A stretch of DNA of 64,000 nucleotides from an uncultured Erysipelotrichaceae bacterium. Lineage in GTDB: Bacteria > Bacillota_I > Bacilli_A > RFN20 > CAG-826. Position 1 is the first letter of the stretch; each line of letters starts with the position of its first letter. Location: contig CADAIJ010000003.1 of NCBI GenBank assembly GCA_902787955.1, positions 13,907 to 77,906 of the forward strand, in the 5' to 3' direction. The notes beneath the pieces are model-generated. The model ran no database searches. It had not been told where the DNA came from and saw only the letters and a program-made list of their open reading frames with translations. Shown here piece after piece: positions 20,393 through 41,304 of the stretch. A program made the translations under genes and the position numbers.

Positions 20393-20461
20393 AAGAATAA
20401 TCTCCATAAATATATATTTAAGATAATATAGATTTACACATGTATAAATCTTATTAAGCAT

Positions 20462-24182: not shown

Positions 24183-25415
24183 TTATCTTTTTAGCAAAAC
24201 TTCTTTTTCGTATTCTCTGACTTCTTTTAACATCTCAGCGTCACTTACCATATTTTGACGTTTAAGATATTCGTCCCAAACTTCTCCCCATGGTAATGTT
24301 TTTAATTCTTCTTGAAGCGCTAAAACTGAGGTATGATCGCCATTATCTTGAAGTTCTTTTAACTTATCCCATGGTGTTAATAAAGCCTTTAATAAAGCCT
24401 TTTCCATATTTCTTGCACCAATCACCATCGCTGCAATTCTATTAATAGAAGCATCAAAATAATCTAAACCGATATAACTTCTTTTTAATCCATCACATTT
24501 TACTAATTCATCAGCGACATCTTGAAGATCATCATTAAGTTTTAAAACGTGATCACTATCCCATCTTACTGGCCTAGAGACATGGAAGGCTAATTTGTTA
24601 TAGAAACAGTACATTGATGAAATCTTATCAGCGACATTTTCTGTTGGATGGAAATGACCGGTATCTAATAAGCAACAAATATTTCTACTGGCTGCGTAAT
24701 TCAAATAAAATTCATTACTACCTGTAGTGTATGATTCAACACCGATTCCAAAGACCTTACTTTCCACGGAAACATCCATAACTTTCTTATCATATTTATA
24801 ACCTGCAAGAATTTTATCTAAAGAATCTTTTAATCTCATTCTTGGACCTAATCTATCTGCTGGAACATCTTTGAGTCCATCAGGAATCCAAATGTTCATC
24901 AATGACTTTTGTCCTAGTTCTTTGCCAAACATTTCGGTGATTTTTAAGCCATTTATGCAGTGTTTTATCCAATAATTACGAACTTTTTCATCTGGGGAAG
25001 ATAAAGAAAGACCATCCACTAACATAGGGTGAGAAAAGATTGTTGGATTATAATCTAAACCCAAGCCTCTCTCTTTAGCGTATTTTACCCATTCTTCAAA
25101 TTGTTCAGGTCCAACATCACATCTTTGAACGATTTTACCTGTTTGATAAATAGCGTGGAGATTAATTTTTTTGCTACCTGGAATATAACTTAAAGCTTTG
25201 TCTAAATCCTTTGTTAATTCTTCAAAGTTTCTCGCTCTTCCTGGATAGTTACCCGTAGCTTGAATCCCACCAGTTAAATCTCCATCTCCTTCAAAACCTT
25301 TGACATCATCAAGTTGCCAACAATGAAGGGAAATCTTTGTTTCTTTAAGTTTCCTTAAAGCTTCAAATACATCCAATCCATAAGATGCATAAATTTCTTT
25401 GATTTGTTTTCTCAT
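24183..25415 (-). CDS. rhaA: L-rhamnose isomerase.
   Basis: 410 aa. The N-terminal region ...LHCWQLDDVKGFE... and overall similarity match the RhaA family. Confidence 0.85.
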   Translation of the reverse strand: MRKQIKEIYASYGLDVFEALRKLKETKISLHCWQLDDVKGFEGDGDLTGGIQATGNYPGRARNFEELTKDLDKALSYIPGSKKINLHAIYQTGKIVQRCDVGPEQFEEWVKYAKERGLGLDYNPTIFSHPMLVDGLSLSSPDEKVRNYWIKHCINGLKITEMFGKELGQKSLMNIWIPDGLKDVPADRLGPRMRLKDSLDKILAGYKYDKKVMDVSVESKVFGIGVESYTTGSNEFYLNYAASRNICCLLDTGHFHPTENVADKISSMYCFYNKLAFHVSRPVRWDSDHVLKLNDDLQDVADELVKCDGLKRSYIGLDYFDASINRIAAMVIGARNMEKALLKALLTPWDKLKELQDNGDHTSVLALQEELKTLPWGEVWDEYLKRQNMVSDAEMLKEVREYEKEVLLKR

Positions 25416-26719
25416 AATTCCTTACTCGCTTTCATTTGAATTTTGATATTTCCTAACGCGGTTGCTTCGATTGGATGAACAACCACTTTTAAATTTGTAT
25501 ATTCTTTAATTAAGCTATTGAGGTAGTCGTTTTTAGCTCCACCGCCTAATACATGTATTGCTTTATATTTTTTAGAGGTAATCTTTTCTAATTCATTTAC
25601 GGCGTTTTTATACGCTAATGCCATCGAGCGATATATGGATGAAAATACTTCTAAATCGTTTTTAGGTTGATTATCTTTTGGCAGTAACTTGAGTATTGCT
25701 TCTTTCATATTAGTAGGAGATAAAAGTGACTCATCATTTACATTAAATGTCATCCTATAGTTACTTTTAAAAATATTTTCATTAATATATTCTTGAGTTA
25801 AATGGGTTTCTTTTTTTACTCTATTAGCAATCCACATCCCCATGATGTTTTTTAAAAATCTAATGTAGCCCACTCCGCCTTCGTTAGTGTAATTAGCTTT
25901 TAAAGATTCATTAGTGATGATGGCTTTTTTTGATTTAATGCCTAATAAGGACCAGGTTCCACTACTAAGAATGATAGAATCATCATCAGTATCAATTGAT
26001 TCAAAAGCAGATGCGGTATCATGAGAAGCACATAAATATACTTTAGTGTTCCCACCTACTTTCTTTTGTATTAAAGGTAATAATTCCCCAACAAAATCTC
26101 CAGGTTGATTTATTTTTCCAAAGAGTTTTTTTGGGAAATTCAATTTATCTAACGTTTCATAATCGTATTCTTTATTTAAAGCGTTTAATAATGCACCAGT
26201 AGATTCGTTCGTGTATTCATGGGTTTTAATGCCAGTTAATTTATAAACAAAATAACTTGGAAGCATTAAATAATCAGTAGCTTCATTTAATCGACCATTT
26301 TTTAAATCATCATATAGTTGATAAATAGTGTCAAATGACGCGAATTGAATCCCAGTTTTTTCATATAGGTTTTCAAATGAAACTATTTTGTGAACATCAT
26401 CACTAGCTTTTAAGCATCTCTTATTTCGATAAGCATAAAAAGGAGGTATTTCTTTTTCCTTATTCATTAAAACATAATCAACTCCCCATGTATCGATAGA
26501 AAGTGATTCAATATTTTTATACTTTTTAAACGCTAATTTAATACCTTTTAATATTTCTTGATATAACCTTGGAATATCCCAAACTAAGCCATTTAGCGAA
26601 TCATCCATTCCCGTTTTAAAACGATGGACCTCATCTAAAATAATTTCTTCATTTTTAGTGTAACCCACAATATGACGGCCACTACTGGCTCCTAGATCAA
26701 TAGCAAGGTAATATTTCAT
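25412..26719 (-). CDS. rhaB: Rhamnulokinase (FGGY carbohydrate kinase).
   Basis: The FGGY N-terminus YLAIDLGASSGR. It sits between rhaA and rhaD. Confidence 0.8.
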   Translation of the reverse strand: MKYYLAIDLGASSGRHIVGYTKNEEIILDEVHRFKTGMDDSLNGLVWDIPRLYQEILKGIKLAFKKYKNIESLSIDTWGVDYVLMNKEKEIPPFYAYRNKRCLKASDDVHKIVSFENLYEKTGIQFASFDTIYQLYDDLKNGRLNEATDYLMLPSYFVYKLTGIKTHEYTNESTGALLNALNKEYDYETLDKLNFPKKLFGKINQPGDFVGELLPLIQKKVGGNTKVYLCASHDTASAFESIDTDDDSIILSSGTWSLLGIKSKKAIITNESLKANYTNEGGVGYIRFLKNIMGMWIANRVKKETHLTQEYINENIFKSNYRMTFNVNDESLLSPTNMKEAILKLLPKDNQPKNDLEVFSSIYRSMALAYKNAVNELEKITSKKYKAIHVLGGGAKNDYLNSLIKEYTNLKVVVHPIEATALGNIKIQMKASKEL

Positions 26720-26720
26720 T

Positions 26721-27539
26721 TTATTTTTCTTCGATAACTCCAGGCATCATTTTTAAATTCCAGAGTTTAGCTAAACCAATAATAACTTCATCCGGAATCT
26801 CATTAACAACATGGCCTAAAGTTAACATATAAATCTGAGCGGTCTTCTCGACGGTTTCGATTAAACCAAAAGCTTCATCAATATCATTTCCGGCGCCATA
26901 GATACCATGATTAGTCCAAGAAACAATTCGATGTTCTTTCATTTTATTAGCAGTGGCTTCACCAATTTCAGTTGTGCCACAAATCATACATGGTAAAACA
27001 CCAATTCCTTCTGGGAAAACAACAACTGCTTCGGTATTTGATTTCCATAGTTTTCTTGTAAAGACTACTTCATCAGTTGGTAAGCAAGCCCCCATACAAA
27101 TTGTATAGGTTGGGTGAGTGTGCATTATTACTCTATTATTTGGATTAACTTTTAATCGAGTAGCGTGGCTCATTAAGTGGGCTGGAAATTCGCTTGTGAA
27201 CTTGCCTCCACTTCGATAGCCCCATAACAAGTGGGCTATTTTGCCATTATTATCAATTTTTACTAACCCTAAATTCTCTTCTGGATCTTTAATTATATTT
27301 TTAAAATATTTACCAGTTCCTGTGACTAAAAAATATTTATTTCTAGTGATTTCATCCGCTTTAAAACCAAGTGGAATATCTCTTATAAATTCATCTTTTG
27401 GGAAATATTCTTTTACATACATTTCGTCGATAAGATATGAAATGTTACCGCCATTTCTTTCATCCCAACCTTGATGATACATATTGTTAGTAATTTCACT
27501 AACTTCTTTAACAAATTTTGATTCTAAAAAGTTTTTCAT
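26721..27539 (-). CDS. rhaD: Rhamnulose-1-phosphate aldolase (class II aldolase/adducin family).
   Basis: 272 aa with the Zn-binding His cluster MHTHPTYT. Adjacent to rhaB. Confidence 0.8.
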   Translation of the reverse strand: MKNFLESKFVKEVSEITNNMYHQGWDERNGGNISYLIDEMYVKEYFPKDEFIRDIPLGFKADEITRNKYFLVTGTGKYFKNIIKDPEENLGLVKIDNNGKIAHLLWGYRSGGKFTSEFPAHLMSHATRLKVNPNNRVIMHTHPTYTICMGACLPTDEVVFTRKLWKSNTEAVVVFPEGIGVLPCMICGTTEIGEATANKMKEHRIVSWTNHGIYGAGNDIDEAFGLIETVEKTAQIYMLTLGHVVNEIPDEVIIGLAKLWNLKMMPGVIEEK

Positions 27540-27541
27540 TT

Positions 27542-28189
27542 TTATTCACCTACTATTTTTAATAAATCTGATAAGACTTCTAACTTATATTTAACTTGCT
27601 TATGGGCGCACGCATCTCCGATTGCCACTGGAACAAATCCACCCACAACCGCCGCGTCAATACCAGCAAAAGCATCTTCAACAACGATACAATCTTTTGG
27701 TTCTAATCCAATTCTTTTTGCGGCAATTAAAAATACTTCTGGATCTGGTTTACTTTTCTTAATATCTGTACCATCCGCTATCGCATCAAAGGCATTAATT
27801 AAACCAACTCGAGATAAAATTAATTTGGTATTTTTACTTGATGATCCAATCGCGATTTTTAGGCCTTTATTTTTAAGTTCGTCTAATGTATCTCTTACAT
27901 CAACACTTACAAAATCAGGAGTTAAACCATTAAGTAGTTCGCGATAGGTGTTATTTTTTTCTTCAGCAAAAGCAAGTTTCTCTTCTTCGCTAAAATGATA
28001 TCCTTCTAAAATAATCTCTAAAGAAGCCATTCTACTAACCCCTCTTAAGCGATTATTCTTTTCTCGGTTAAAAGGAATATTTAATCGATTAGCTAACTTT
28101 TTCCAAGCTTTATAATGAAAGTCATCTGTTGATAAAATGACACCATCTAAATCAAATATTACACCCTTAATCATTTTTATTATCTCCAA
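27542..28189 (-). CDS. HAD-superfamily hydrolase, beta-phosphoglucomutase-like subfamily.
   Basis: The VIFDLDGVIL motif I and a C-terminal VEDAFAGIDAA. Confidence 0.7.
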   Translation of the reverse strand: MEIIKMIKGVIFDLDGVILSTDDFHYKAWKKLANRLNIPFNREKNNRLRGVSRMASLEIILEGYHFSEEEKLAFAEEKNNTYRELLNGLTPDFVSVDVRDTLDELKNKGLKIAIGSSSKNTKLILSRVGLINAFDAIADGTDIKKSKPDPEVFLIAAKRIGLEPKDCIVVEDAFAGIDAAVVGGFVPVAIGDACAHKQVKYKLEVLSDLLKIVGE

Positions 28190-29624
28190 TAAAATATTTT
28201 CTTAATAAATATGAAGGAGTACAGCTCCAAGCGTGGCAATAGCTTAAAACGGCTTTACCTCCATATGGACTTTCATCTTTATTATTTGGATTAAATAATT
28301 CGTAGAAAGTGTCTGCCCCATCATTAGCCATCGCGCCCCAATATTCATCCATAGTTGAGCGAGCTTCTTCTTTTAAACCGCATTTAATTAAAGCTTCAAT
28401 GTAATAGTGATACATATATGGAGTCACTATTTCTTCAAAAGATAATGATTTTAAATTATGAATAATTTGTTGATTTTTCTCCAAAGAGAAATCATTACCT
28501 AAAATCATCCAAACATTACTCGCTAAAGAGATTTGTCTATCTTTTCCACTAACATATACGCCAAGTTTTTCATCAAAGAAATGTTTAGATGCTTCTAATT
28601 TCTTTTTATAGTCGTCAATTAATAATTTGGTGTCTTTATTAGTAGCTTTATATAGTTCAATTAAATCTTTTAAAGCCACTAAATAAACGCCTTGCGCGCC
28701 ACACTGTTTATTTAATCTTAAGTTCCAATCTAAAAAGCACCATCCTAAAACGCTACTATCATTAACTATGTCATCAGTAAAATTGTTTTGAGCAAGTTCA
28801 ATTTGTTTAGTGGCAATTGGTAATAAATCAATCACAGTTTTTAAATCGTTCGTGTGCTTAAAATAATCATTAAGCGTGGAGATATAAAGCAAGGAATAAT
28901 CAAACATAAAGGTATCATCACCAGTAACCTTTGGACTAGTGAAAACACATGCTGGTACTCTTCCATCTTTATCCGTTACTCCTGCAAATAAATAAAGACA
29001 CCTTTTGACTAGATCATAGTTTTTATAAGTGTAATAATTGGTTAAAGCTTGAAGTCTTAAGTCACCAAGCCATAAACGACGATCTCTTTTTGGTCCATCT
29101 TCAAATTCATACTGCATGCATTCATGAAGAGTTAATAAAGCTACTTTATCGATATTCTTTTCTAAAGAATTATTACCAACATAATTAACTCTAACATTAT
29201 TAGAAGAAAGAGCATCGATATGAGCGCCTTTTAAGATAACTCTATATTTATTTGAAGAGGCAACTAATTCAACTTTAACATAACGGAAAGCATATCTTCT
29301 TTTTAGTTTTAAGGTAGTTGGTAAGATATCTAAATGAATTAATTCTTCTTGAATCCAACTTTTTGAAATCCAACCATGATATTCTTCCGTCTTTTCATTA
29401 ATTTCATCTTTATGTTCACAAAATTTTATTCTTAATAAAATAGGGGCGTCTACTGGAGAGCCTTCAAAATCTAAATCAAGGGATAAGAAGCCAGTGTAAT
29501 GAGTAACAAAATCAATTACAAAAGCCTCACCTACTTTTAATTCACTTGAAAAATCTTTATTGATATAAGTATGAAATAATTCAGGTTTTAATTGCTTGGC
29601 AACATTTAGTAATCTTTTGTTCAT
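28167..29624 (-). CDS. Six-hairpin glycoside hydrolase, GH78 alpha-L-rhamnosidase-like catalytic domain only.
   Basis: 485 aa with no signal peptide. Has DRRLWLGD and C-terminal ...SYCHAWS... segments like the GH78 (alpha/alpha)6 domain. Confidence 0.5.
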   Translation of the reverse strand: MNKRLLNVAKQLKPELFHTYINKDFSSELKVGEAFVIDFVTHYTGFLSLDLDFEGSPVDAPILLRIKFCEHKDEINEKTEEYHGWISKSWIQEELIHLDILPTTLKLKRRYAFRYVKVELVASSNKYRVILKGAHIDALSSNNVRVNYVGNNSLEKNIDKVALLTLHECMQYEFEDGPKRDRRLWLGDLRLQALTNYYTYKNYDLVKRCLYLFAGVTDKDGRVPACVFTSPKVTGDDTFMFDYSLLYISTLNDYFKHTNDLKTVIDLLPIATKQIELAQNNFTDDIVNDSSVLGWCFLDWNLRLNKQCGAQGVYLVALKDLIELYKATNKDTKLLIDDYKKKLEASKHFFDEKLGVYVSGKDRQISLASNVWMILGNDFSLEKNQQIIHNLKSLSFEEIVTPYMYHYYIEALIKCGLKEEARSTMDEYWGAMANDGADTFYELFNPNNKDESPYGGKAVLSYCHAWSCTPSYLLRKYFIGDNKND

Positions 29625-31330
29625 TATATTCTAGTATCCCATTTGCCACAGAAAGCATCAACTGGGCTAACTCCTTTAAATTCAGAATCACCCATTAATT
29701 TCTCAATTAATTTATCGAGAATAATATCAGTACTTCCATAAGTATTAATATATGTCTTTACTCTTGGAACATCTAATAGATGGTATGGATTTTCTAAAGA
29801 AATGAAGATTGTTGGCACACTATTAATGTAGGTCGGAACGTTTGCTCCCATTGGTTGAGCCCATTCAATTCTCACTACTGTTTGGTTGCTCTTAGTGGCC
29901 ATATTTGCCGAATAAATAATTAAATCGTAATTATTCTTAACTTCTTCTGAAGAGGCCATCATTCCTTCAAAGCCTGGCTTAGGTACAAATTTAGTTACTT
30001 CAAAGCCTTTTTCTTTTAATTTATTCATGAAGTTGTTATTAGCACTCATATCAACGCTAAAACCCATTTGCCCTTCACCAGATTCAATCGCATAAAATAA
30101 CACTCTTTTATATTTATTTGGATTAATTGGTAAAACGTTTTGAATGTTTTTTACTAAAGTAATTGAATAATCTGCGACTTCATAAGCGAATTTTTTATTA
30201 TTCTTATTGCCCACTACTTTATTAATATTTTCTAAAGTAGGAATCATTCGATCTTTATGAAGTTTTAATGATGCTTTTAAGGCTAGGATTTTTCTAACTG
30301 CATCATTTAATCTTTCTTCGCTAATAATACCTTCTTCGTATCCTTTTCTCATAAATGAAAAGTCTTCTTCAAGGTTTTTAGTGAATAAAAACATATCGCA
30401 TCCAGCGGCAATAGTTAATGGAACTAGTTTTCTTCTCTCCATAGCGATATTTAATCCCGCCATAGTCGTGGAATCTGTTATTACTAAGCCATTAAAGCCT
30501 AGTTTTTCTTTTAATAAACCAGTAACAATCTCTTTCGAAATGGTTGCAGGTAAAATATCTTCATCTTTCAAAGAAGGAGTGAGCAATTTGCTATAAGAAG
30601 GAAGCATAATGTGTCCCACCATAATGGTTTTAACACCTGCTTCAATGCAGCTTTTATATATTTCCCCATAACTATTATCCCATTCTTCTATTGTTAAAGA
30701 ATTGATTGAAGTTACTAGATGTTGATCTCTTTCATCCACTCCATCACCTGGGAAATGTTTAGCACAACCTGCTAATCCATATTTTTGTAATGAATTAATA
30801 TAATTAACGCCGCACTTTTTGACCATGTTTTTGTTAGAGCCAAAAGTTCTAGTGTTAGTAATTGGATTTCTGAAATTTAAATCAATATCAACAATTGGGG
30901 CAAAAGACCAGTTAACCCCACAAGAACTGCCTTCTTTTCCACAAATATCACCTAAAATAGAAGCATATTTAGAGTCATTAGTAGCGGCAATTGCTAATTC
31001 TGCTCCTAATTTGGTTCCGCTAGTGGAAACGCCGTTTCCTCCCGCTTCTAAGTTTGCTGAAATAAGCATTGGAATCTTAGAGTTATTTTGTAAATAGCTA
31101 ACTGTTTTAACAATTTCTTCATTATTCATGACGCGGCACATAATGCCACCAATTTTTAGAACGTTAGCTAAATAACTTAGATATTGTTCATCGCTTGAAT
31201 AAGCAATTAAACAAAATAGTTGTCCTATTTTTTCTTCGAGAGATAAATTAGATAGAGTATTTTCAACCCAATCAATATCTTCGTCATTTAGATAAAATGG
31301 TTTACTCTTGAGGTTTGTCATTAGTTTCAC
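29624..31330 (-). CDS. Glycoside hydrolase family 3 protein (beta-glucosidase/beta-hexosaminidase-like).
   Basis: The GH3 N-terminal domain motif KHFPGDG and an upstream catalytic region. 568 aa. Confidence 0.75.
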   Translation of the reverse strand: MKLMTNLKSKPFYLNDEDIDWVENTLSNLSLEEKIGQLFCLIAYSSDEQYLSYLANVLKIGGIMCRVMNNEEIVKTVSYLQNNSKIPMLISANLEAGGNGVSTSGTKLGAELAIAATNDSKYASILGDICGKEGSSCGVNWSFAPIVDIDLNFRNPITNTRTFGSNKNMVKKCGVNYINSLQKYGLAGCAKHFPGDGVDERDQHLVTSINSLTIEEWDNSYGEIYKSCIEAGVKTIMVGHIMLPSYSKLLTPSLKDEDILPATISKEIVTGLLKEKLGFNGLVITDSTTMAGLNIAMERRKLVPLTIAAGCDMFLFTKNLEEDFSFMRKGYEEGIISEERLNDAVRKILALKASLKLHKDRMIPTLENINKVVGNKNNKKFAYEVADYSITLVKNIQNVLPINPNKYKRVLFYAIESGEGQMGFSVDMSANNNFMNKLKEKGFEVTKFVPKPGFEGMMASSEEVKNNYDLIIYSANMATKSNQTVVRIEWAQPMGANVPTYINSVPTIFISLENPYHLLDVPRVKTYINTYGSTDIILDKLIEKLMGDSEFKGVSPVDAFCGKWDTRI

Positions 31331-32390
31331 CTCTATTTTTCTTTTCTTTATATTGCTTTATTATTTTTTTAATAAGGGTTCCGTTAGCTAAATCTTTACA
31401 GGTTTGTTCGTTATTTAAAAAGATTAAGAATCCCACTAATAAGACTGCAGTGACGATCGATTGAATACTCGCGGTAATTGTTTTCGTGTTAAATAAGGCG
31501 AACATAGAGCTTAATAAACTGATACAGATTGAGGCAATTAAATAGCCAATCTTGTCATTTGTGTATTTACCAATATATCCCCCAATAAACATTGGTAAAA
31601 AGGCGATGAACATAATTCCAATTGAACCAAAGTTTAATACAGAAGTAGCAATTTGGTTACCTGGGAGAACTTGTAAGAAACCAACTGTTCCCATTAACGC
31701 ACCACAGATTGTATAGCATATAATCGCGTTTGGAACTTCTTTAATCCCTGTATTAACAGCGATATTTTGTCCTGCTCTTAAAGCTTTGTAGTTAAAACCA
31801 AACTTAGAACGATCAAATACTAAATAAATAACACCTAAGGCTAAAACGATAATAATAAGATGAATCCACCAACTCTCTCTAAAGAAAATCATCGAGGCAT
31901 TGGATGTTTCAGTGGTAATGTATCTACCGCCACTAATCATATAAATAATGCCTTCAAATATTAAAGTGACACCTAAAGAAGTGATAATTGGAGGGAGTTT
32001 TAAAGCAACGTATAAAGCTCCTGATAAAGCACCTAAGACTGCTCCAACAATAATAGAAATTAAAAGCATTACTGGAGCACTTGCTCCACTTCCAGCTAAC
32101 ATTGCGTAAGTAATTTTAGCAGCAATAACGGAGGATAAAGTTGATAATGATCCAATCGAAAAGTCGAATCTTCCACTACTTAGGTTAATTGATAAAGCAA
32201 TTGTGGTAAGAAGGACAACCGCGGTATATCTAGTAAAGCCATAGAAAGAAACATCCGTAGTTAAAATCATTTGTCCGCTTGATAAACAGACAATTAAAAT
32301 AGCCATAATAACGAGAACAGGGATTGTAAAAATACCAAACGCTTTTTTACGAATGTCTTTAGCTTTTGATTGTTTATTAATTGCTTCCAT
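31302..32390 (-). CDS. ABC transporter permease (BMP/CUT2-type inner-membrane component).
   Basis: 362 aa, polytopic, with typical branched-chain/sugar ABC permease topology. It belongs to a 4-gene transporter cluster. Confidence 0.7.
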   Translation of the reverse strand: MEAINKQSKAKDIRKKAFGIFTIPVLVIMAILIVCLSSGQMILTTDVSFYGFTRYTAVVLLTTIALSINLSSGRFDFSIGSLSTLSSVIAAKITYAMLAGSGASAPVMLLISIIVGAVLGALSGALYVALKLPPIITSLGVTLIFEGIIYMISGGRYITTETSNASMIFFRESWWIHLIIIVLALGVIYLVFDRSKFGFNYKALRAGQNIAVNTGIKEVPNAIICYTICGALMGTVGFLQVLPGNQIATSVLNFGSIGIMFIAFLPMFIGGYIGKYTNDKIGYLIASICISLLSSMFALFNTKTITASIQSIVTAVLLVGFLIFLNNEQTCKDLANGTLIKKIIKQYKEKKNRGETNDKPQE

Positions 32391-32469
32391 AAATTACCTC
32401 CGCAATGTTAACTAAGTGCTTGCTATGCAGGAATTAACCCGCATAGCAAGACACGCTTTTATAATTTGA

Positions 32470-33639
32470 TTATTGTGGTGTTCTATCTAATTCAACAGCA
32501 GCTTTGAAGCTATCATATGATGCACCGATAAGTGTATCTAAAACTGTCTTATTGAAAATAGGATTAGTAACTGAATCTGCTGATTGGAATTTTTCGAATT
32601 CAGCAGAGCTCTTGGCTGTCCAATAACCTTGGCTAAGAGAGAAGGCATCGCCATTTGCAAGTCTAATGGCCTTACCATCGATAGCAGATTTAATAGCAGC
32701 AAAGATTGGCCCTAATGAAGAAGAATATTTACCAGCTAAGTATTTTAATGAACCGGTTTTCATGTGGGCTCCGTTAGCGGTTGTAAATGAATCGATATCA
32801 GAATATTCAAGGTTTGCTTTATCTAACATATCAGCAAAGAAAGTTGTGGTCATACCAACTGATAAGAATGCGTCTGGATTACCAGCAATAATTTCACCGA
32901 CTCTACCAAAGATTGCACCTTCACCATCAAAACCACTGCAATAATCAATTGTGACATCACCAGCGATATTTGAAGCGTCGAATTGAGCGCCATCACCAAA
33001 GACAGTGTAAACGATATTTTGACCGCTTTGTCCTTTGTAAGTATCACCTAAACCAGTTAATAAACCAGCCATACGGTATAAGTGCATTGGGTTTGGAATA
33101 AACGCACCATAAACGCCAACTTTAGAAACTTTTTTGGTTTCTTTATAATATTGACCCATTGCTAAGCCAGTATTATATTCGGTAACCATATCTGGGCCAA
33201 TTTGACCAACAAAGTATTCGAGATTCTTGCTAGCGTTATAGTCTTCATCACTCATCATTCCACTACCAATTGCAAAGTAAACTTTGTTTGTATTGCATAA
33301 TTGAGCAAGATCGCCACGGTTCTTATCAGCCATATCGATAATTGCTTTGCAGTTTTGACCAATAAATGTTTCTGCTTGAGCTCTTGCTTGTTCAGCAGAA
33401 TCGAGTTGTGGAGAATAAACAAATTCGTAGTTGTATTCTTTAGCAACATATTGTTGTAAATAGTTTTTGAAGCCGATTGCTTCATCACCACTTGCATCTG
33501 CAACTAAAACACCAACTTTGACAGTGCTATTACCACCGCCACAAGCAACAAGAGCCATACTTGCTCCGGCCAACGCGATAGCAGTGACCCCTTTAATAAA
33601 TTTTGAAATTGCCATAATTTCACTTTTTTGCATATACAT
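32470..33639 (-). CDS. BMP-family (basic membrane protein / PnrA-like) substrate-binding lipoprotein.
   Basis: Signal peptide with the lipobox LVACGGG. The periplasmic-binding fold sequence lies between the two permease genes. Confidence 0.7.
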   Translation of the reverse strand: MYMQKSEIMAISKFIKGVTAIALAGASMALVACGGGNSTVKVGVLVADASGDEAIGFKNYLQQYVAKEYNYEFVYSPQLDSAEQARAQAETFIGQNCKAIIDMADKNRGDLAQLCNTNKVYFAIGSGMMSDEDYNASKNLEYFVGQIGPDMVTEYNTGLAMGQYYKETKKVSKVGVYGAFIPNPMHLYRMAGLLTGLGDTYKGQSGQNIVYTVFGDGAQFDASNIAGDVTIDYCSGFDGEGAIFGRVGEIIAGNPDAFLSVGMTTTFFADMLDKANLEYSDIDSFTTANGAHMKTGSLKYLAGKYSSSLGPIFAAIKSAIDGKAIRLANGDAFSLSQGYWTAKSSAEFEKFQSADSVTNPIFNKTVLDTLIGASYDSFKAAVELDRTPQ

Positions 33640-33726
33640 ATTGTACTTATGCTATGCGTTACCTTTCATAAGATTAGAGTTGCTAGTACAAAGCAACGTT
33701 TATTTGTCCACCGAAGTGGTTAAAAC

Positions 33727-34755
33727 CTATCTTGGCAAGTTTTTAGAACGGTAATTGATACTTGCTACAAAGACGATAGCAAGGAAGAAAACACCGCTGA
33801 TAACTTGCACTAAACCATCTCTTGCTCCTTCCATTGATTGGAAAAGAATAAAGAGAATATTGGTCATGATGTTGTATGAAAATCCACCGATAAGAGCGGA
33901 ATATATCCTACTTCGAGCACCACCATTAATTGGCATGCCACCAAAGACAATAGCGATAAATACCGACATACCAATGCTACTAGCAGTTGTGGTTGATACT
34001 GTATGAGCGTAAACAACAGTCATTGAGCTTCCTAAACCAACTCCTAAACCTGCTAAAGCAAAAGCGATAATACCGAATAAAGAAATGGAAATACCGGTTA
34101 ACTTAGCGCATTTTTCATTGCCACCAAGGAACTTTTGTTTTCTACCAACTTTTGTAAAGTTAAATATAAAGACCATTGCTAAGATAAAGATGCCAAGCAA
34201 GATGATTTTAAATATAGGAGTGTCTAATGGTGCTAATTTATCCACGAGTTCAGAAGGTAAATTAATGCTATAAGAAGTTCCACTTGCACTGCCTTGAGAT
34301 TGAATTAAGAATGTGGCTAAAGCTGTTAAAACAGAAAGCATTGCAATTGTGGTAACAAACATCGGGAGATGAAATACACTAGCAATTAAAGCGTTTAATA
34401 ATGAACAACCAACCGCAACGAGGATACAGATGATAAATAATAGAGCGATACTACCTGTAGCTTTATAAACTAAAGTACCAATAACTGCAGAGAATAATGC
34501 ATTAGCGCCTAAAGATATATCAAACTGGCCAAGAGTGAATATGAATATAGCGCCAGTTGCTACTAAAACAAGAATCAAAGATTGATTTAATAAAGATCTT
34601 AAATTCATCATGATGTTATAGTCGTTAACATTTAAAATGATGATATAAAAGACGAAAAGTAAAATAAGCGCTAATAAAGGAAGCAAAGTAATGACTAACT
34701 TTTTAGCTTTATATTTATCAAATTTTGGTTTTTTATTTTCCATAACTTGTTCCAT
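33727..34755 (-). CDS. ABC transporter permease (second membrane component).
   Basis: 342 aa, polytopic, adjacent to the ATPase gene. Confidence 0.7.
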   Translation of the reverse strand: MEQVMENKKPKFDKYKAKKLVITLLPLLALILLFVFYIIILNVNDYNIMMNLRSLLNQSLILVLVATGAIFIFTLGQFDISLGANALFSAVIGTLVYKATGSIALLFIICILVAVGCSLLNALIASVFHLPMFVTTIAMLSVLTALATFLIQSQGSASGTSYSINLPSELVDKLAPLDTPIFKIILLGIFILAMVFIFNFTKVGRKQKFLGGNEKCAKLTGISISLFGIIAFALAGLGVGLGSSMTVVYAHTVSTTTASSIGMSVFIAIVFGGMPINGGARSRIYSALIGGFSYNIMTNILFILFQSMEGARDGLVQVISGVFFLAIVFVASINYRSKNLPR

Positions 34756-34766
34756 AAAAACACTCC

Positions 34767-36314
34767 TTAGATCATATAACCGATGATTTCGGCATCGCTT
34801 AAATCTTTACTTCTTAAGAATTCTTTATTAATTTTTCCATCTTTCATAATGATCAAACGATCACTCATGCCCATTAATTCCGGTAATTCTTCGGAAATGA
34901 TAATAATGGTCTTCCCTTCTTTTTTAAGACGATAAAGTAGTTGGTACATAGCTTGTTTAACACCGATATCAACACCACGTGTTGGGCAGTCTAAAACTAA
35001 GATTTCACTACCGCAGCCAATCCATTTACCAAAAACTACTTTTTGTTTATTACCACCTGATAGGGTTTGTACTACTTGAGAACTATCAGAACATTTAATT
35101 AATAAGGAGTCGATTTGTTTTTTAACATATTCATTTTCTTTAGAATAGAGAACTAAGAAATTCCCGATAGAGAAAATATCTAAACCAGCGATTGCGATAT
35201 TATCTTTAACGGATGCTGATAAAACTAATGACTCATTATCTCTATCTTTTGAGACATAGCCAATTTTCTTTTTAGTAGCGAAGATTTCGTTTTTAATCTT
35301 TTCGCCATTAACTAAAGCTTCTCCATCATCGAGTTTAACCGCGCCAAATAATGCTTTTCCTAAGGTGTGCATTCCGCAATGAGATAAACCACCAATACCG
35401 AGGATTTCTCCTTCATGAGCTTCTAAATTAATGCCATACATATGACCTTTTACAGTCGCATTTTTTAATTCAATTGTGACTTTTTCACCATGAGTTGGAT
35501 CATAATCACTACGATAATAATCACCTTCTAATTCACGGCCAATCATACTTAATCTAATTTGATCAGGATCGAATTCTTCTTTTTTGAATGTGCGGATGAT
35601 GTTGCCATCTCTTAAAACCGTTAAGGTATCGCAAACTTCCATAATCTCATCTAAATCATGAGAAATGAAAATAACTGCTCTATTTTCTTCTCTATAACGT
35701 TTAACTACTTTATAAAGAATTTCTCTTCCTTTTTGTGATAAGGCGGTTGTTGTTTCGTCAACGATTAAAATTTCAGGTTCTTTCATGATGACTTTAGCAA
35801 TTTCGACTAGTTTACGAGATTGGAAATCTAAAGCACCCATAATCATGGAACTATCAATATTATCAATTCCAATATTTCTTAATACTTCGTTTGCGCGTGC
35901 ATGCAGTTCTTTTTTATTAATAAAGCCATATTTACTAAATTGATTTAAATTACCTAAGAAAATGTTTTCAGCGACAGAAATACCTGCAATTGTTCCACTT
36001 TCTTGAACAATCATGCCGATTCCTTTATCTAAGGCATCGATCATACTTTTAGGAGCCCAGTTTTCACCTAAATATTTCATTTCACCGCTATCGGCTTTTT
36101 GCATTCCAGCAGCGATAGAGGAGATTGTTGATTTGCCAGAACCATTCTCGCCAATTAGACCTAAAACATCTCCACGATAGAGTTTTAAATCAACATTATT
36201 TAAAGCAGTAACAGGACCAAAAGTTTTAGTCATATTGGTGATTTCCAAAATCAAATCACCTTTATTTCGAGTAATGGAATTTGGCATTTTTAAACGCTCC
36301 TTTTGTATCGACAA
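34767..36314 (-). CDS. ABC transporter ATP-binding protein with two fused ATPase domains.
   Basis: The first domain has Walker A GENGSGKST, the signature LSGGNKQK-type motif and Walker B. The second domain is degenerate, as in CUT2/BMP-type importers. Confidence 0.85.
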   Translation of the reverse strand: MSIQKERLKMPNSITRNKGDLILEITNMTKTFGPVTALNNVDLKLYRGDVLGLIGENGSGKSTISSIAAGMQKADSGEMKYLGENWAPKSMIDALDKGIGMIVQESGTIAGISVAENIFLGNLNQFSKYGFINKKELHARANEVLRNIGIDNIDSSMIMGALDFQSRKLVEIAKVIMKEPEILIVDETTTALSQKGREILYKVVKRYREENRAVIFISHDLDEIMEVCDTLTVLRDGNIIRTFKKEEFDPDQIRLSMIGRELEGDYYRSDYDPTHGEKVTIELKNATVKGHMYGINLEAHEGEILGIGGLSHCGMHTLGKALFGAVKLDDGEALVNGEKIKNEIFATKKKIGYVSKDRDNESLVLSASVKDNIAIAGLDIFSIGNFLVLYSKENEYVKKQIDSLLIKCSDSSQVVQTLSGGNKQKVVFGKWIGCGSEILVLDCPTRGVDIGVKQAMYQLLYRLKKEGKTIIIISEELPELMGMSDRLIIMKDGKINKEFLRSKDLSDAEIIGYMI

Positions 36315-36514
36315 TAAAATTTTAAAATATGGGGCTTTAAGATATAACTCGCTTGGATATGGAATTTAAGATAGATTTTTATTCTTTTTTGAAAGGATGA
36401 TGAAACATAACAAAAGGGATTTTCTTAATTTTTTGAGTAGTATACATATTTTTACATTAATTTTTTGTTTATGTATTTATCATATGTTCTTTTTTTGATA
36501 AAATATCATGTGTT

Positions 36515-38995
36515 ATGGAAAATATTTACGAAATTATCCCCTTTAGTAATGAATTACCCACTGAGTTAAAGTGCCAATATATTGACAGTTATGTTAATAC
36601 TTTGTCCAAAGATACCACCATAATTTTTGTTTTGGATGGAGAAGCAAACATCATTTATGACGGTAATTCTTCGTTATTAAAACAAGATGATATTGTTCTA
36701 ATTAATAAAAATACTGTTTTTAATATTTCTTCAAACGGAGCTACCCTTTTAATCTTTGAATTCAATATAGATAACATATTAAAAACCAACGTTAAACGAA
36801 CATACTTTTTATGCAATTCTTCTTTAGATGAAGATAAAAGCAAATACCATCATTTGATTAGATTAATTGCGAGACTAATTAAAGATTATTCAGAACATCC
36901 ACAAAACATTTTTGCTCACCTTGCCGCGATATGTCAGATCTATGATGAATTATGTCTTAATTTCCTTTCCGATAATAATAGCATTAATAATACCCATAAG
37001 TATCAAGATAGGGTGCAACAAATCACCCATTATATTGATGAGCACTTTGAAGAAAATATAGCATTGTCCACTTTATCTAATGCAATTGGTTTATCCACTC
37101 CTTATTTATCTAGTTTCTTTGATAAATATATCGGGATGAATTTCCATCAATATTACACCGAATATCGCTTAAGCAAGGCCATTGATGAACTAATATTTAC
37201 TGATAAAACTATTGAGGATATTTCGTACTCATGTGGATTTAATGATGTTCGCTCCTTTGTTTATTCTTTTAAAAAGAAATATAAGATTTTACCTAGCATT
37301 TATCGTAAACAAAATAGAGTTATTCCGATTGATAAAAAATCATTATCTTATGATATTGAAAGAAAACACAATAAATACGAAAACAATTTAAGTACAATCG
37401 CTAAATATTTAGATGTGAAATATGAACGCTCCGATACATTAAAAGATGAATATTTAAAAGAAATAAAAATAGATGATATTGATGTAACTTCTCCAAAAGC
37501 TCAATTAAAGCACAATTTTAAAGTTTTCACTTCTGTTTCTCGCGCTAAAGAATTGCTATACGCTGATGTTCAAGAAATGTTAAAAGAACTTCAGAAAAAA
37601 GTCGGATTTAAGTACATTAAATTCCACGGCATTTTATCAGATGATATGCTCGTTTATAAAGAAGATGAATATGGTAATCCTACTTATAGTTTTGTTTTTA
37701 TAGATAAAGCATTAGATTTTATTTTGTCAATTGGTTTAAAGCCACTTATTGAATTTACGTTCATGCCAAAAGATTTAACTAATGCAAATGCACATAGTGT
37801 TTTTGCGTCTAAATTTTATATTGGTGAACCAAAAGATTACGATAAATGGGCTGATTTAATTAAAAATCTCATGTTACACCTTATCGATAGATATGGAATT
37901 AGAGAAGTGAGAAGTTGGCTTTATTGCGCTTGGAATGAACCTGACACCACCACATCATTATTTGGCTTTAAAAATGATAATGATTATTACAAACTATATA
38001 AAATTACATATGAGATAGTGAAGGGTTTTTCCTCACAGTGTCAATTCGGTTCTCCTTCCATTATTTTTTCTTACAAAGTTTATCAAGATTGGATTAAGAA
38101 ATTTATCGAATATTGTAATAACAATAACTGTAGACCTGATTTCATTAATATCCATTACTACGATAATGATTTTACTTTCGATAATATTTCATCTCATTCA
38201 CCAGCGAATCCATCTCACGGCCGTTTAAATATGGATTCTGAATCATTCAATAAGGCTATTGTGGATATTAAAAAATATATGAATGATTTAGAAGTCGGAG
38301 AATTACCAATTTATCTAACTGAATGGAATTTAACTGTTTCACACCGCAACTTATTAAACGATACAGTTTTTAAATCATGTTATTTAGCCAAGAACTTATT
38401 AGAAAACTATGATGAATTAGATAGTTTTGGTTATTGGGTTTTAACTGATTTAATTGAAGAAACTCAACCATCAATGTCTGAATTCCATGGAGGTTTAGGT
38501 TTATATACGTATCACCAAATCAAGAAACCGCACTTCTACATTTTTGAGTTTTTAAATACTCTTGGTAATTCTTTTATTGATAAAGGACCAGGTTATTTTG
38601 TTGCGAAAAAGCATGGTTGTATTCAAATAATTCTTTATAATTACGAGCATTTTAATCATTTATTTGCCTCAGGTGAAACATATGATATGACATATTTAAA
38701 TAGATACACCCCATTTTCTAATTTAGGAAAAATGAAAGTATCGTTAGACTTAAAAGGTTTTACCGCTAAAAAATGTCATATTGTTGAAAAAATAGTAAAC
38801 CAAAAACATGGATCCGCTTTTGATGAATGGGTTTCGATGTCCGCTCCTAAAATTGATGAACAAATCATCGATTATTTAAAGAGTATTTGTATTCCTAAAA
38901 TGAATACTAAAGATGAAGAAATAATAAATGGAAAAATAAGTATTTCAGCAACACTTTCACCATTAGAAGTACGTTTAATTGAAATCCACTATTAG
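36515..38995 (+). CDS. AraC-family transcriptional regulator fused to a C-terminal clan GH-A (GH39-like) glycoside-hydrolase domain.
   Basis: An N-terminal cupin-like region precedes the AraC HTH (IALSTLSNAIGLSTPYLSSFFDKYIGMNFHQYY...VRSFVYSFKKKY). The C-terminal ~500 aa carry the acid/base motif CAWNEPD and the nucleophile motif LTEWN, which are the spaced catalytic signatures of GH39/GH-A. Confidence 0.65.
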   Translation: MENIYEIIPFSNELPTELKCQYIDSYVNTLSKDTTIIFVLDGEANIIYDGNSSLLKQDDIVLINKNTVFNISSNGATLLIFEFNIDNILKTNVKRTYFLCNSSLDEDKSKYHHLIRLIARLIKDYSEHPQNIFAHLAAICQIYDELCLNFLSDNNSINNTHKYQDRVQQITHYIDEHFEENIALSTLSNAIGLSTPYLSSFFDKYIGMNFHQYYTEYRLSKAIDELIFTDKTIEDISYSCGFNDVRSFVYSFKKKYKILPSIYRKQNRVIPIDKKSLSYDIERKHNKYENNLSTIAKYLDVKYERSDTLKDEYLKEIKIDDIDVTSPKAQLKHNFKVFTSVSRAKELLYADVQEMLKELQKKVGFKYIKFHGILSDDMLVYKEDEYGNPTYSFVFIDKALDFILSIGLKPLIEFTFMPKDLTNANAHSVFASKFYIGEPKDYDKWADLIKNLMLHLIDRYGIREVRSWLYCAWNEPDTTTSLFGFKNDNDYYKLYKITYEIVKGFSSQCQFGSPSIIFSYKVYQDWIKKFIEYCNNNNCRPDFINIHYYDNDFTFDNISSHSPANPSHGRLNMDSESFNKAIVDIKKYMNDLEVGELPIYLTEWNLTVSHRNLLNDTVFKSCYLAKNLLENYDELDSFGYWVLTDLIEETQPSMSEFHGGLGLYTYHQIKKPHFYIFEFLNTLGNSFIDKGPGYFVAKKHGCIQIILYNYEHFNHLFASGETYDMTYLNRYTPFSNLGKMKVSLDLKGFTAKKCHIVEKIVNQKHGSAFDEWVSMSAPKIDEQIIDYLKSICIPKMNTKDEEIINGKISISATLSPLEVRLIEIHY

Positions 38996-39138: not shown

Positions 39139-41304
39139 TTATTTGAAAATTAAAGATATAACACTCTTTTTATTTTTATATTCGTAACTATAGCTCTTGG
39201 ATAAAGTCTTAACTAATGTGACTCCAAAGCCTCCAGGAGTGGTGTCATCATCATCTTTAGAAAGATGTTTATGAACATGTTTAACAAATGGGTTATAGTC
39301 TGCACCATTTGAAGTAATAACAACTTTAAGATCATCCTTTTCAAATGAGAAATCAATATCAATAACTAAATCTTCTCGTTTTTCATAAGAAATTTGGTTA
39401 TTAAGTAATTCATCTAAAGCAATTCCAACGTGGGCTTTAACTTCTTCATCTACTGAACCATAAACCTTATAAAATTCTTCCATTGTTTCATCAATAATGG
39501 AGTAGTCTTTCTTCTCAAAATGAAGTGATAATGAATTGTCTTTTCTTTCTAAAACAACCATGGTGATATCATCAAATTGTTCTTCTTCTTTAACGAAATC
39601 TTTTAATTTATTGTTAAAGTAGGTTATTTTTTCGTTTAAAGATGAATCTTTACATTCTTTTAATGTTTCAACGATACGATCATAACCAAATTCTTCATTA
39701 TCTTTGTTTATTGATTCATTTAAGCCATCCGTAAAGGTAAATAAGGTATCGCCTTGAACAAATGGAGATTTCTCTTCGATAAAGGTTAAATCTTCTTCTC
39801 CACCTAAGACAAAGTTAGATGTTCCATCAAGCTTAATAATCTCATTTTGATGGATTATATATGGTTTTTCATGGCCAGCGTTAACAAATCTTATCTCATT
39901 ATTCTTTGAATCGATAATCGCGACAAAAGCAGTAACGAATAAGGAAGAATCATTATTAATTGTTAATTCATTATTAACAGTTGCAATGGAGTCCACTAAA
40001 GAAAGACCGCTTAAAATCTTTGCTTTAAGCAAGGTCTTAGCTTTCATCATAAACATCGCTGCAGGTACGCCTTTGCCACTAACATCAGCAATTAATAAAA
40101 CTAAATTATCACCAAAATAGAAATAATCATAGAAGTCTCCACCAACAACTTTAGCAGGCTTAATATAAGCACTAAGTTTAACGTTATTATCCATGAAATT
40201 TCTACTAGGAAGTGCGCTCAATTGAATATCTGAAGCAATTGAAAGTTCAGCTTCTCTTCTCTCATTTTCTTTAGCTTCTTGTTTAATGATATTAACGTAA
40301 TTAACAATTTCTTGTTCCATGATTTCAAATGATGATGCTAAAGAGGCAATCTCATCACGGCTCTTAATATTTAATGGAACAGGAGTAATACCTTTATGTT
40401 CTTTTAAATCAGAAGAAATATTATCAGTTTGAGTAGTTAATTTATTTAAATTACGTGTAATTGTGAAATGGGATAAAAGCATATAAAGGACGATGGACGC
40501 CACCATAACAGAAGAAATAATAATAATTTCATTGCCTAAAATTTCACGGTCTTTTTTTGTCACTTCGTTTAAATCGTATTCAATAAAGAAGTCGGCAACT
40601 TCAACTTGATTGCCTTCGCCATCAGTTTGATAAATAGGGACAAAACGAGTTAAATATCCAGCAAGTTCAAATCCATAATAGTTTTCATCAACGACATCGA
40701 TAACTTTATCAAACTCCTTAATGGAATAATGGCTACCTGGAAGATGATAGAATTTATCATTCTCATTTGGATTTGTTATTCGAGAATCCGCGACGAAAAC
40801 AAGTCTAGTTTCGTTTTCAAGTTCATCTTTAAAACAAACATAGGCTGCACGACCACCACTAGAAAGAAATGCTTCAGTAATAATATGGGTTAGCTCGCGA
40901 TATTTACGTGCAAAATCAAAATAGGCTTGACTACCAATCATTGAATTTGGATCCGGAAAGATCCATGGTGCTCTTTTTTGAAAGTATTGTTCATACTCGT
41001 CAAAATTGTTATTGAAATCACCATCAAGAGTTTTGTCGTGAATGTCTTCGCGATTATAAACATCGTTTCTAACGTAACTAATAACATCTGCTAATTCTTC
41101 AGTAGAAGTAGCTCCGGTAAGTTCTTTTGTGTAATTAAATTCAACACTATATAAAGATTGATCAATATTTGTAATTAAAGTTTCCTTACTTCTATTTTGT
41201 TGGTTGATTGAAGAGATAGTTAAAGCTACTCCTGAACCAATCCCAGAAGCTAAAATGCCTAAAATTGCAATTTTTAAAATAATAGGAAACTTAACTTTTT
41301 TCAT
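39139..41304 (-). CDS. Membrane sensor fused to a PP2C-type (SpoIIE/RsbU-like) phosphatase and a C-terminal RsbW-like GHKL kinase domain.
   Basis: Two TM helices flank an extracytoplasmic domain of about 230 aa. The PPM motif is LIADVSGKGVPAAMFM. The C-terminal N-box ALDELLNN and G-box GGFGVTL are present. Confidence 0.65.
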   Translation of the reverse strand: MKKVKFPIILKIAILGILASGIGSGVALTISSINQQNRSKETLITNIDQSLYSVEFNYTKELTGATSTEELADVISYVRNDVYNREDIHDKTLDGDFNNNFDEYEQYFQKRAPWIFPDPNSMIGSQAYFDFARKYRELTHIITEAFLSSGGRAAYVCFKDELENETRLVFVADSRITNPNENDKFYHLPGSHYSIKEFDKVIDVVDENYYGFELAGYLTRFVPIYQTDGEGNQVEVADFFIEYDLNEVTKKDREILGNEIIIISSVMVASIVLYMLLSHFTITRNLNKLTTQTDNISSDLKEHKGITPVPLNIKSRDEIASLASSFEIMEQEIVNYVNIIKQEAKENERREAELSIASDIQLSALPSRNFMDNNVKLSAYIKPAKVVGGDFYDYFYFGDNLVLLIADVSGKGVPAAMFMMKAKTLLKAKILSGLSLVDSIATVNNELTINNDSSLFVTAFVAIIDSKNNEIRFVNAGHEKPYIIHQNEIIKLDGTSNFVLGGEEDLTFIEEKSPFVQGDTLFTFTDGLNESINKDNEEFGYDRIVETLKECKDSSLNEKITYFNNKLKDFVKEEEQFDDITMVVLERKDNSLSLHFEKKDYSIIDETMEEFYKVYGSVDEEVKAHVGIALDELLNNQISYEKREDLVIDIDFSFEKDDLKVVITSNGADYNPFVKHVHKHLSKDDDDTTPGGFGVTLVKTLSKSYSYEYKNKKSVISLIFK

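Follow-up and report, generated by a model that had tools for sequence, protein, structure and literature searches.

The locus and its fusion gene

The window analysed here, a stretch of 64,000 nucleotides from an uncultured Erysipelotrichaceae bacterium (assembly GCA_902787955.1, contig CADAIJ010000003.1, positions 13,907 to 77,906 of the forward strand), encodes a protein of 826 residues that, judged from its sequence, is an AraC-type transcriptional regulator joined to a complete and apparently active glycosidase of glycoside hydrolase family 39 (GH39). The gene is transcribed divergently from a ten-gene operon for glycoside uptake and breakdown. The domain layout is as follows; the structural entries refer to an AlphaFold2 (AF2) model and its predicted local distance difference test (pLDDT) scores.

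36515..38995, + strand: whole gene for the cupin-AraC-GH39 fusion, stop codon included (single open reading frame, ORF)
36515..36814, + strand: N-terminal cupin-like beta-barrel, about residues 1-100, degenerate (AF2 strands, sub-threshold Pfam matches, ToxT match)
36995..37315, + strand: AraC/XylS dual helix-turn-helix (HTH), about residues 161-267 (HTH_18, PDB matches, model helices)
37316..37456, + strand: inter-domain linker, residues 268-314, disordered at residues 271-287 and followed by two helices (AF2 pLDDT)
37457..38992, + strand: full-length GH39 domain, residues 315-826, a (beta/alpha)8 barrel with a C-terminal beta-sandwich (PF01229, 1w91, Foldseek)
37931..37942, + strand: WNEP motif, residues 473-476, E475 being the predicted acid/base (alignment to 1w91 and 2bfg)
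38318..38329, + strand: TEWN motif, residues 602-605, E603 being the predicted nucleophile (alignment to 1w91)

The product is read from one uninterrupted frame on the + strand, 36515-38995, with an ATG start; the initial annotation of the locus had already given its coordinates and length. The AF2 model, built from an alignment of 30 sequences, has a mean pLDDT of 83 and a predicted template modelling score (pTM) of 0.64. The canonical AraC dual HTH proposed earlier is likewise found. The Pfam model HTH_18 matches residues 187-266 over all 80 of its positions (E = 2.2e-19, 69.9 bits against a cut-off of 33.6), HTH_AraC scores 32.3 bits against a cut-off of 26.6, and AraC-type domains of the PDB such as 3oou match residues 167-266 (E = 2.5e-13). 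In the AF2 model the dual HTH consists of seven helices at residues 161-267. The linker that follows has a pLDDT below 50 at residues 271-287 and helices at residues 289-309.

The GH39 domain

The C-terminal region had been described as GH39-like, and this assignment is well founded. Glyco_hydro_39 (PF01229) covers residues 325-805 at model positions 8-468 of 472 (E = 1.6e-78, 265 bits against a cut-off of 26). The best match among solved structures is XynB1 of Geobacillus stearothermophilus (1w91), with residues 328-825 aligned to chain residues 11-481 (E = 1.6e-77). In this alignment the WNEP motif falls on E160, the acid/base of XynB1, and the TEWN motif on E278, its nucleophile; the structure of the E160A mutant (2bfg) marks the acid/base position. 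The two spaced clan GH-A signatures noted earlier are thus in place as CAWNEPD (residues 471-477) and LTEWN (residues 601-605), 128 residues apart.

The model agrees with the sequence matches. An alternating strand-helix region at about residues 338-680 is followed by a beta-sandwich, and we call this region a (beta/alpha)8 barrel because Foldseek matches it to GH39 enzymes. Mean pLDDT exceeds 80 in most 10-residue blocks of the domain. Searched against the PDB with Foldseek, the top matches are 2bs9 and 1w91 (E of about 3e-44, target-normalised template modelling (TM) score 0.85-0.86), and the target-normalised TM-score to eleven GH39 chains is 0.85-0.88. Modelling therefore returns the barrel plus beta-sandwich of solved GH39 beta-xylosidases, a two-domain fold common to XynB1 (1w91, 2bs9, 2bfg), T. 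saccharolyticum XynB (1px8) and the D. thermophilum enzyme (6yyh). However, those enzymes are stand-alone proteins of about 500 residues, while the window protein carries about 315 residues of cupin, HTH and linker in front.

Both catalytic glutamates, whose presence the initial annotation had proposed to check, are retained. In an alignment of 82 distinct fusion proteins with pairwise identities down to about 35%, H371, E475, H547, Y549, E603, N605, W641 and E649 are invariant (82/82) and N474 is kept in 79 of the 82. These residues match the published list of catalytic and substrate-binding positions of GH39 beta-xylosidases (PMC8543862). The acid/base and nucleophile of XynB1, along with the equivalents of H54, N159, H228, Y230, W316 and E324, are all kept in the window protein. 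At the level of sequence, invariance of this kind is purifying selection on catalysis, a strong constraint.

The pocket differs from that of characterised beta-xylosidases at three positions. Ten residues of the -1 subsite were mapped from the same study in XynB1 numbering (H54, F115, N159, F166, H228, Y230, Y283, W316, F322 and E324). Seven of them are identical in the window protein, while F166, Y283 and F322 are replaced by L482, V608 and I647. Across the fusion family these positions are aliphatic (M or L at 482; V, L or I at 608; I, L or M at 647), whereas their equivalents are aromatic in the G. stearothermophilus, T. saccharolyticum and D. thermophilum enzymes. An equivalent of Y283 is missing from XylP81 as well, a xylosidase that is active (PMC8543862). 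The ligand of the GH39 pocket may accordingly be something other than a simple xyloside.

The same substitutions bear on whether the domain might be a pseudo-enzyme that binds a glycoside as a sensor and no longer hydrolyses it. The three altered aromatics would fit such a domain, as would the profile of the staphylococcal regulator AryK, discussed below, which misses the acid/base segment (residues 414-581) and suggests that the domain can degenerate while the protein stays a regulator. Against this, all or almost all of the 82 proteins, which diverge to about 35% identity, keep both glutamates, the asparagine of the NEP motif, H547, Y549 and E649, a pattern that would be surprising in a domain able to dispense with catalysis. 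Because the catalytic residues are so well kept, we regard a pseudo-enzyme sensor as unlikely.

The N-terminal cupin domain

The cupin-like N-terminal domain of the initial annotation is recovered as a predicted fold whose ligand site has degenerated. The AF2 model has beta-strands at residues 4-83, predicted to form a beta-barrel, followed by a helical segment, and the N-terminal half matches structures of the full-length AraC-type regulator ToxT in Foldseek. Pfam signals for a cupin span residues 33-85 but stay below threshold (Cupin_2 19.3 bits, cut-off 27.2; AraC_binding 12 bits, cut-off 21.1). The pattern typical of the family is His-Trp-His-x3-Glu...His, with H29 in 65, H31 in 70, E35 in 76 and H69 in 68 of the 82 sequences. 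The window protein reads Thr, Leu, Ser and Thr at four positions of cupin motif 1 and Phe at the position of the distal His, so that T, S, T and F replace the His, His, Glu and His of the ligand site. These degenerate positions are consistent with the failure of the Pfam cupin models, and the closest relatives of the protein are similarly altered. With the His/Glu site lost in the window lineage, no ligand site other than the GH39 pocket is obvious in the protein.

In its N-terminal half the protein is laid out like AraC, RhaS, MelR and ToxT, with a cupin followed by a dual HTH. Canonical AraC/XylS sugar regulators end after the HTH, whereas the window protein adds a glycosidase domain of about 510 residues, and its cupin, unlike theirs, is without the ligand residues of the family. 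Among NCBIfam models, RhaS (E = 1.7e-16) and AraC (E = 8.8e-16) both match below their cut-offs.

These observations bear on a different account of the fusion, in which the GH39 domain is the cytoplasmic exo-glycosidase of the pathway tethered to a conventional AraC regulator as a matter of convenience, the cupin senses, for example, a released monosaccharide in the manner of AraC and RhaS, and there is no allostery between GH39 and HTH. Most family members keep the His-x-His-x3-Glu...His cupin and pass Cupin_2 and AraC_binding, the NCBIfam similarity to RhaS and AraC reaches over the cupin region, and invariant catalytic residues are what a working enzyme would be expected to have. Yet the window protein and its closest relatives have all four cupin positions replaced and have kept both the gene and its synteny, and the stable occurrence of the fusion in at least 469 species-level genomes (see below) suggests a functional link beyond co-expression. 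We consider such a fusion of convenience the main rival of the reading preferred below, but less likely than it.

A widespread fusion family

The initial annotation had allowed that the ORF might be two genes joined by a sequencing frameshift. In principle, a frameshift or the loss of a stop codon could have turned adjacent AraC and GH39 xylosidase genes into one, and the sole hint of this is a pair of shorter homologues (486 and 566 residues) on contigs of about 2 kb, which are probably truncated. Against it, the identical protein sequence is called on independently assembled contigs of a public sequencing run, hundreds of genomes in several phyla encode a colinear architecture of about 825-840 residues, and alignments with homologues are unbroken across the linker. 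As the same architecture recurs across genomes and the identical protein occurs on independent contigs, the fusion is real; a frameshift or two-gene origin is ruled out for all practical purposes.

A protein search returned 221 proteins at E <= 1e-10. Among the 120 matches listed, nearly all are near-full-length (about 810-860 residues) with the same Pfam architecture; the matches come from Clostridia, Lachnospiraceae, Paenibacillus and Natronobacillus. When each species was represented by a single genome, relatives were encoded in at least 469 species-level genomes; the 80 best of the 469 stretches are all near-full-length fusions in which at least 770 of the 826 query residues are matched. 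The window protein can be aligned over its whole length, and without a break at the linker, with 29 homologues at 38-85% identity, 28 of which are full length, and it was aligned with 81 further fusions from related loci. Its nearest relative (90% identity) is from the rumen, in a metagenome-assembled genome (MAG) that bears the label uncultured Erysipelotrichaceae. Other carriers include Butyrivibrio, Blautia, Catenibacillus, Anaerocolumna, Halalkalibacter, the actinobacterium Demequina and a Treponemataceae MAG. Butyrivibrio proteoclasticus P6B7, Anaerocolumna xylanovorans DSM 12503 and Blautia acetigignens are examples of carriers in culture.

The cupin-AraC-GH39 architecture is therefore widespread, common in gut and rumen bacteria and already annotated by NCBI and JGI; it is neither rare nor new. 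Database names for its members are 'xylan 1,4-beta-xylosidase', 'GH39 family glycosyl hydrolase' and 'helix-turn-helix domain-containing protein', each of which covers only half of the protein. No study of the function of an AraC-GH39 fusion turned up in a literature search. One paper noted an AraC-like N-terminal domain on some GH39 xylosidases and removed it before alignment; two others report a 192-residue 'GH39/AraC' protein without activity, which is not a real test of the fusion. The window protein thus belongs to an annotated, widespread and experimentally uncharacterised family.

The divergent operon

The presumed target of the regulator and the members of the operon that could be placed by homology are listed below.

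24183..36314, - strand: divergent ten-gene operon, presumed target (Pfam, NCBIfam and PDB matches)
34767-36314, - strand: ATP-binding cassette (ABC) ATPase, mechanical ORF from a TTG at 36314
29624-31330, - strand: GH3, BglP-like beta-glucoside phosphorylase (5vqd)
28167-29624, - strand: GH78 alpha-L-rhamnosidase, 485 residues, two-domain (4xhc)
27542-28189, - strand: HAD-family beta-phosphoglucomutase (TIGR01990)

The genes are tightly packed, with gaps of at most 87 bp, in the order ABC ATPase, permease, a 389-residue putative binding protein, permease, GH3, GH78, beta-phosphoglucomutase, RhaD, RhaB and RhaA. An operon divergent from the regulator, with ABC importer, GH3, GH78-like protein and rhaDBA, had been described from the sequence; the matches bear out these genes as well as that of the HAD protein. 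The description of the importer as BMP-type is not supported: the ATPase is a double ATPase that best resembles AraG, RbsA and XylG among NCBIfam models, and the putative binding protein has no match in Pfam or the PDB. The start of the ATPase gene is probably the in-frame ATG at 36287, which is preceded by AAGGAG; this ribosome-binding site and the resulting length of 506 residues, the same as that of the gene call in related locus L001, make it more likely than the TTG.

Both permeases match BPD_transp_2 in Pfam and flank the 389-residue protein (32470-33639, - strand), for which sequence comparison with Pfam, NCBIfam and the PDB gave no match. This protein occupies the position expected of a substrate-binding protein between the permease genes, and its Paenibacillus homologue has a weak Peripla_BP_4 match. 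It may represent a divergent family of binding proteins.

The GH3 protein matches BglP, a retaining beta-glucoside phosphorylase of solved structure (5vqd), end to end (E = 1.7e-146). BglP is one of only two GH3 phosphorylases counted as characterised in a 2022 review, and enzymes of its type produce beta-glucose-1-phosphate (PMC8950772). The HAD protein passes the equivalog cut-off for beta-phosphoglucomutase (TIGR01990, 230.8 bits against 189.4), and its gene lies two genes from that of the GH3 phosphorylase. Formation of beta-glucose-1-phosphate by a BglP-type enzyme would account for the adjacent beta-phosphoglucomutase, and the pair suggests a beta-glucose-1-phosphate pathway. The protein first called GH78-like proved to be a genuine two-domain GH78 alpha-L-rhamnosidase, closely homologous to KoRha of Klebsiella oxytoca (4xhc, E = 1e-125). 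The idea that this GH78 neighbour is a new phosphorylase paired with the beta-phosphoglucomutase was considered and ruled out by the 4xhc match, the phosphorylase partner being the GH3 protein (5vqd).

Gene neighbourhood across related loci

Conservation of the operon was assessed by tblastn of the window neighbours against 87 loci that carry a homologue of the fusion. The ABC ATPase is matched in 72 of these loci, the two permeases in 70 and 65, GH3 in 59, beta-phosphoglucomutase in 30 and the binding protein in 26. GH78 is found in 17 loci, all in the clade closest to the window. RhaD, RhaA and RhaB are matched in three, two and one of the 87, respectively. Judged from these counts, the conserved partner of the fusion gene is a sugar ABC importer with a BglP-like GH3, often accompanied by beta-phosphoglucomutase. 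The link to a rhamnoside locus, prominent in the initial annotation, is lineage-specific, and rhamnose catabolism as a conserved regulon is ruled out by the presence of rha genes in at most three of the loci. In the window rhaDBA lies downstream of the beta-phosphoglucomutase gene; the closest relative (locus L008) has rhaD at that place, where the locus ends.

As in most related loci, the window regulator is divergent from a CUT2-type ABC importer and a BglP-like GH3. The regulator gene is divergent from the homologous ATPase gene in 58 of the 87 loci, usually with a gap of about 160-330 bp, and three divergent family members have the same importer/GH3 module in gene-level tables. Such a layout would be expected where a regulator acts locally on an operon for glycan utilisation, and canonical AraC/XylS sugar regulators are likewise encoded divergently from the sugar-utilisation operon. 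In two examined loci that lack the window-type importer, L064 3000-19000 and L082 3000-19000 (Catenibacillus scindens and a Bacillota MAG), the fusion gene is still divergent from a sugar ABC system, though of another kind (SBP_bac_1/DUF3502, with BPD_transp_1 permeases added in the Bacillota MAG). One of these loci has GH2 and an esterase as companion enzymes; the other has an apiosidase-like protein and GH5. Judged from these other ABC and glycosidase partners, the regulator family has been recruited to other glycan loci.

A gene at 39139-41304 (- strand), convergent with the regulator gene, encodes a 721-residue protein with HAMP, a SpoIIE-type PP2C phosphatase and HATPase_c_2 (anti-sigma-factor-kinase-like). 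It adjoins a fusion homologue in 1 of the 87 loci only and is not a conserved neighbour. In locus L001 a STAS-domain gene (7603-7899) on the same strand ends 4 nt before the start of the gene for the HAMP-SpoIIE protein; as these two genes adjoin, together they probably form a partner-switching module. Beyond rhaA, the regions 20561-22431 (+ strand) and 22477-23730 (- strand) hold a 198-residue ORF, a histidine kinase (His_kinase and HATPase_c, 424 residues) and an AAA_14/DUF4143 ATPase gene. Farther on are ORFs at 15599-18391 (- strand, 930 residues) and 18440-20461 (- strand, 673 residues), the latter without a Pfam match.

The intergenic region

Three short elements lie upstream of the regulator gene.

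36425..36435, + strand: candidate operator half-site 1, TTAATTTTTTG (direct-repeat arm)
36457..36467, + strand: candidate operator half-site 2, TTAATTTTTTG (direct-repeat arm)
36477..36504, + strand: promoter-like site of the regulator gene, TTATCA-16-nt-TG-TAAAAT (consensus scan, consensus match only)

The two copies of TTAATTTTTTG form a direct repeat with 32 bp from start to start. Both are invariant in the window and in loci L008, L009 and L010, whose regulators are 90, 72 and 58% identical to that of the window, while the flanks diverge. The window contains three copies against 0.7 expected by chance, two of them in this intergenic region. Half-site 2 ends 10 bp upstream of the -35-like hexamer of the regulator gene. 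Taken together, position and conservation suggest that the repeat is a candidate operator. A family-wide operator motif was also sought and rejected: in 52 intergenic regions, k-mer enrichment yielded nothing but AT-rich words specific to clades, and the pair is confined to the clade of the window.

The promoter-like site, whose -10-like element is of the extended type, ends 10 nt before the ATG of the regulator, and inspection of the sequence upstream of this ATG found no Shine-Dalgarno sequence. Given the short distance and the missing Shine-Dalgarno sequence, the transcript of the regulator may have almost no leader or none at all. The three related genomes have, at the same place, an AT-rich stretch that resembles a -10 element.

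A proposed mechanism

Our preferred interpretation, to which we give a probability of roughly 0.55, is that the protein is a local one-component regulator of the AraC type for the divergent importer/phosphorylase/rhamnosidase operon and uses a still-catalytic GH39 domain as its sensing module. In this scenario, a cytoplasmic AraC/XylS-type factor would control uptake and catabolism of a glycoside through the divergent operon, probably as an activator rather than a repressor, and would probably act on its own promoter as well. The effector-sensing part would be the complete GH39 retaining glycosidase with its full catalytic machinery. An imported glycoside, with a non-reducing end resembling a beta-xylopyranosyl or beta-glucopyranosyl residue, would bind in the GH39 pocket, and the signal would be relayed to the HTH. 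The GH39 domain would most likely also hydrolyse the bound glycoside, which would make the protein a 'trigger enzyme'.

By inference only, a plant diglycoside broken down in the cytoplasm is a plausible physiological substrate. Either GH39 or GH78 would take off a terminal xylose-like or rhamnose residue, the GH3 enzyme would phosphorolyse the remaining beta-glucoside, and the products would enter central metabolism by way of beta-phosphoglucomutase and RhaABD.

Several observations weigh against sensing by the GH39 domain or against parts of this scheme. Most family members, those of Natronobacillus azotifigens and Paenibacillus tepidiphilus among them, keep an intact His-His-Glu-His site in the cupin, so the cupin could be the sensor of the family and GH39 merely a fused enzyme. 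The geometry between the domains is uncertain in the AF2 model, given its pTM of 0.64 and the disordered linker. With three pocket aromatics replaced by aliphatic residues, a substrate other than a xyloside is conceivable. Conservation of the TTAATTTTTTG motif does not extend to more distant clades. The repeat is also nearer to the promoter of the regulator itself than to that of the ABC genes, and it could belong to a promoter and not be an operator.

Trigger enzymes such as PutA, BirA, NadR and the AraC-family methyltransferase Ada combine a DNA-binding and a catalytic domain in one polypeptide, and their substrate is the regulatory signal. The window protein has the same combination of domains, and a similar coupling would be expected of it under the mechanism proposed above. 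We found no glycoside hydrolase trigger enzyme with experimental support in the searchable literature.

Relationship to AryK and other staphylococcal regulators

The best NCBIfam match of the window protein is the profile of Staphylococcus aureus AryK (NF047455, length 759), with 169.8 bits and E = 8e-50. As this score lies well under the equivalog cut-off of 850 bits, the protein is a homologue of AryK and not an equivalog. The AryK profile is the best NCBIfam match for all 30 family members scanned (best E = 8.4e-67), and their scores are all far below the cut-off. The match is colinear: residues 29-413 align with profile positions 18-400 and residues 582-824 with positions 524-755 of 759, while residues 414-581, which carry the acid/base glutamate, have no match in the profile. 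AryK is thus the closest named relative, at the level of profiles; Rsp is more distant, its profile matching the N-terminal part only (residues 35-323).

AryK (PMC3922988) and Rsp are regulators with experimental support, and both AryK (759 residues) and Rsp (701 residues) have an AraC HTH near the N-terminus followed by a long unexplained C-terminal region (PMC7241556). The colinear match suggests that the C-terminal region of AryK is a diverged domain of the GH39 type that has partly decayed. AryK and Rsp control virulence genes, whereas the window protein adjoins a sugar operon. A broader version of this idea would have an active retaining GH39 domain whose occupancy, or covalent glycosyl-enzyme state, switches the HTH, with the same ancestry for the C-terminal domain of AryK and possibly for the corresponding domains of Rsp and Rbf; taken as a whole, we judge this bolder proposal unlikely.

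Implications

The most useful new points of this analysis are the phylum-wide link of the fusion to a BglP-type GH3, the absolute conservation of the catalytic residues and the tie to AryK at the level of profiles. The first gives GH3 retaining beta-glucoside phosphorylases a physiological setting, comprising an importer, the phosphorylase, a beta-phosphoglucomutase and a dedicated regulator. The last suggests an origin for the unexplained C-terminal domains of staphylococcal virulence regulators; if the domains of AryK, Rsp and Rbf do share GH39 ancestry, these regulators could be degenerate glycan sensors. If the coupling between GH39 and HTH is real, a carbohydrate-active enzyme would be the signal-receiving part of a transcription factor, in a family that is widespread in rumen and gut Firmicutes. 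Should occupancy of the GH39 domain or its glycosyl-enzyme state switch the HTH, the cell would read the turnover of a glycoside directly and not the concentration of free sugar.

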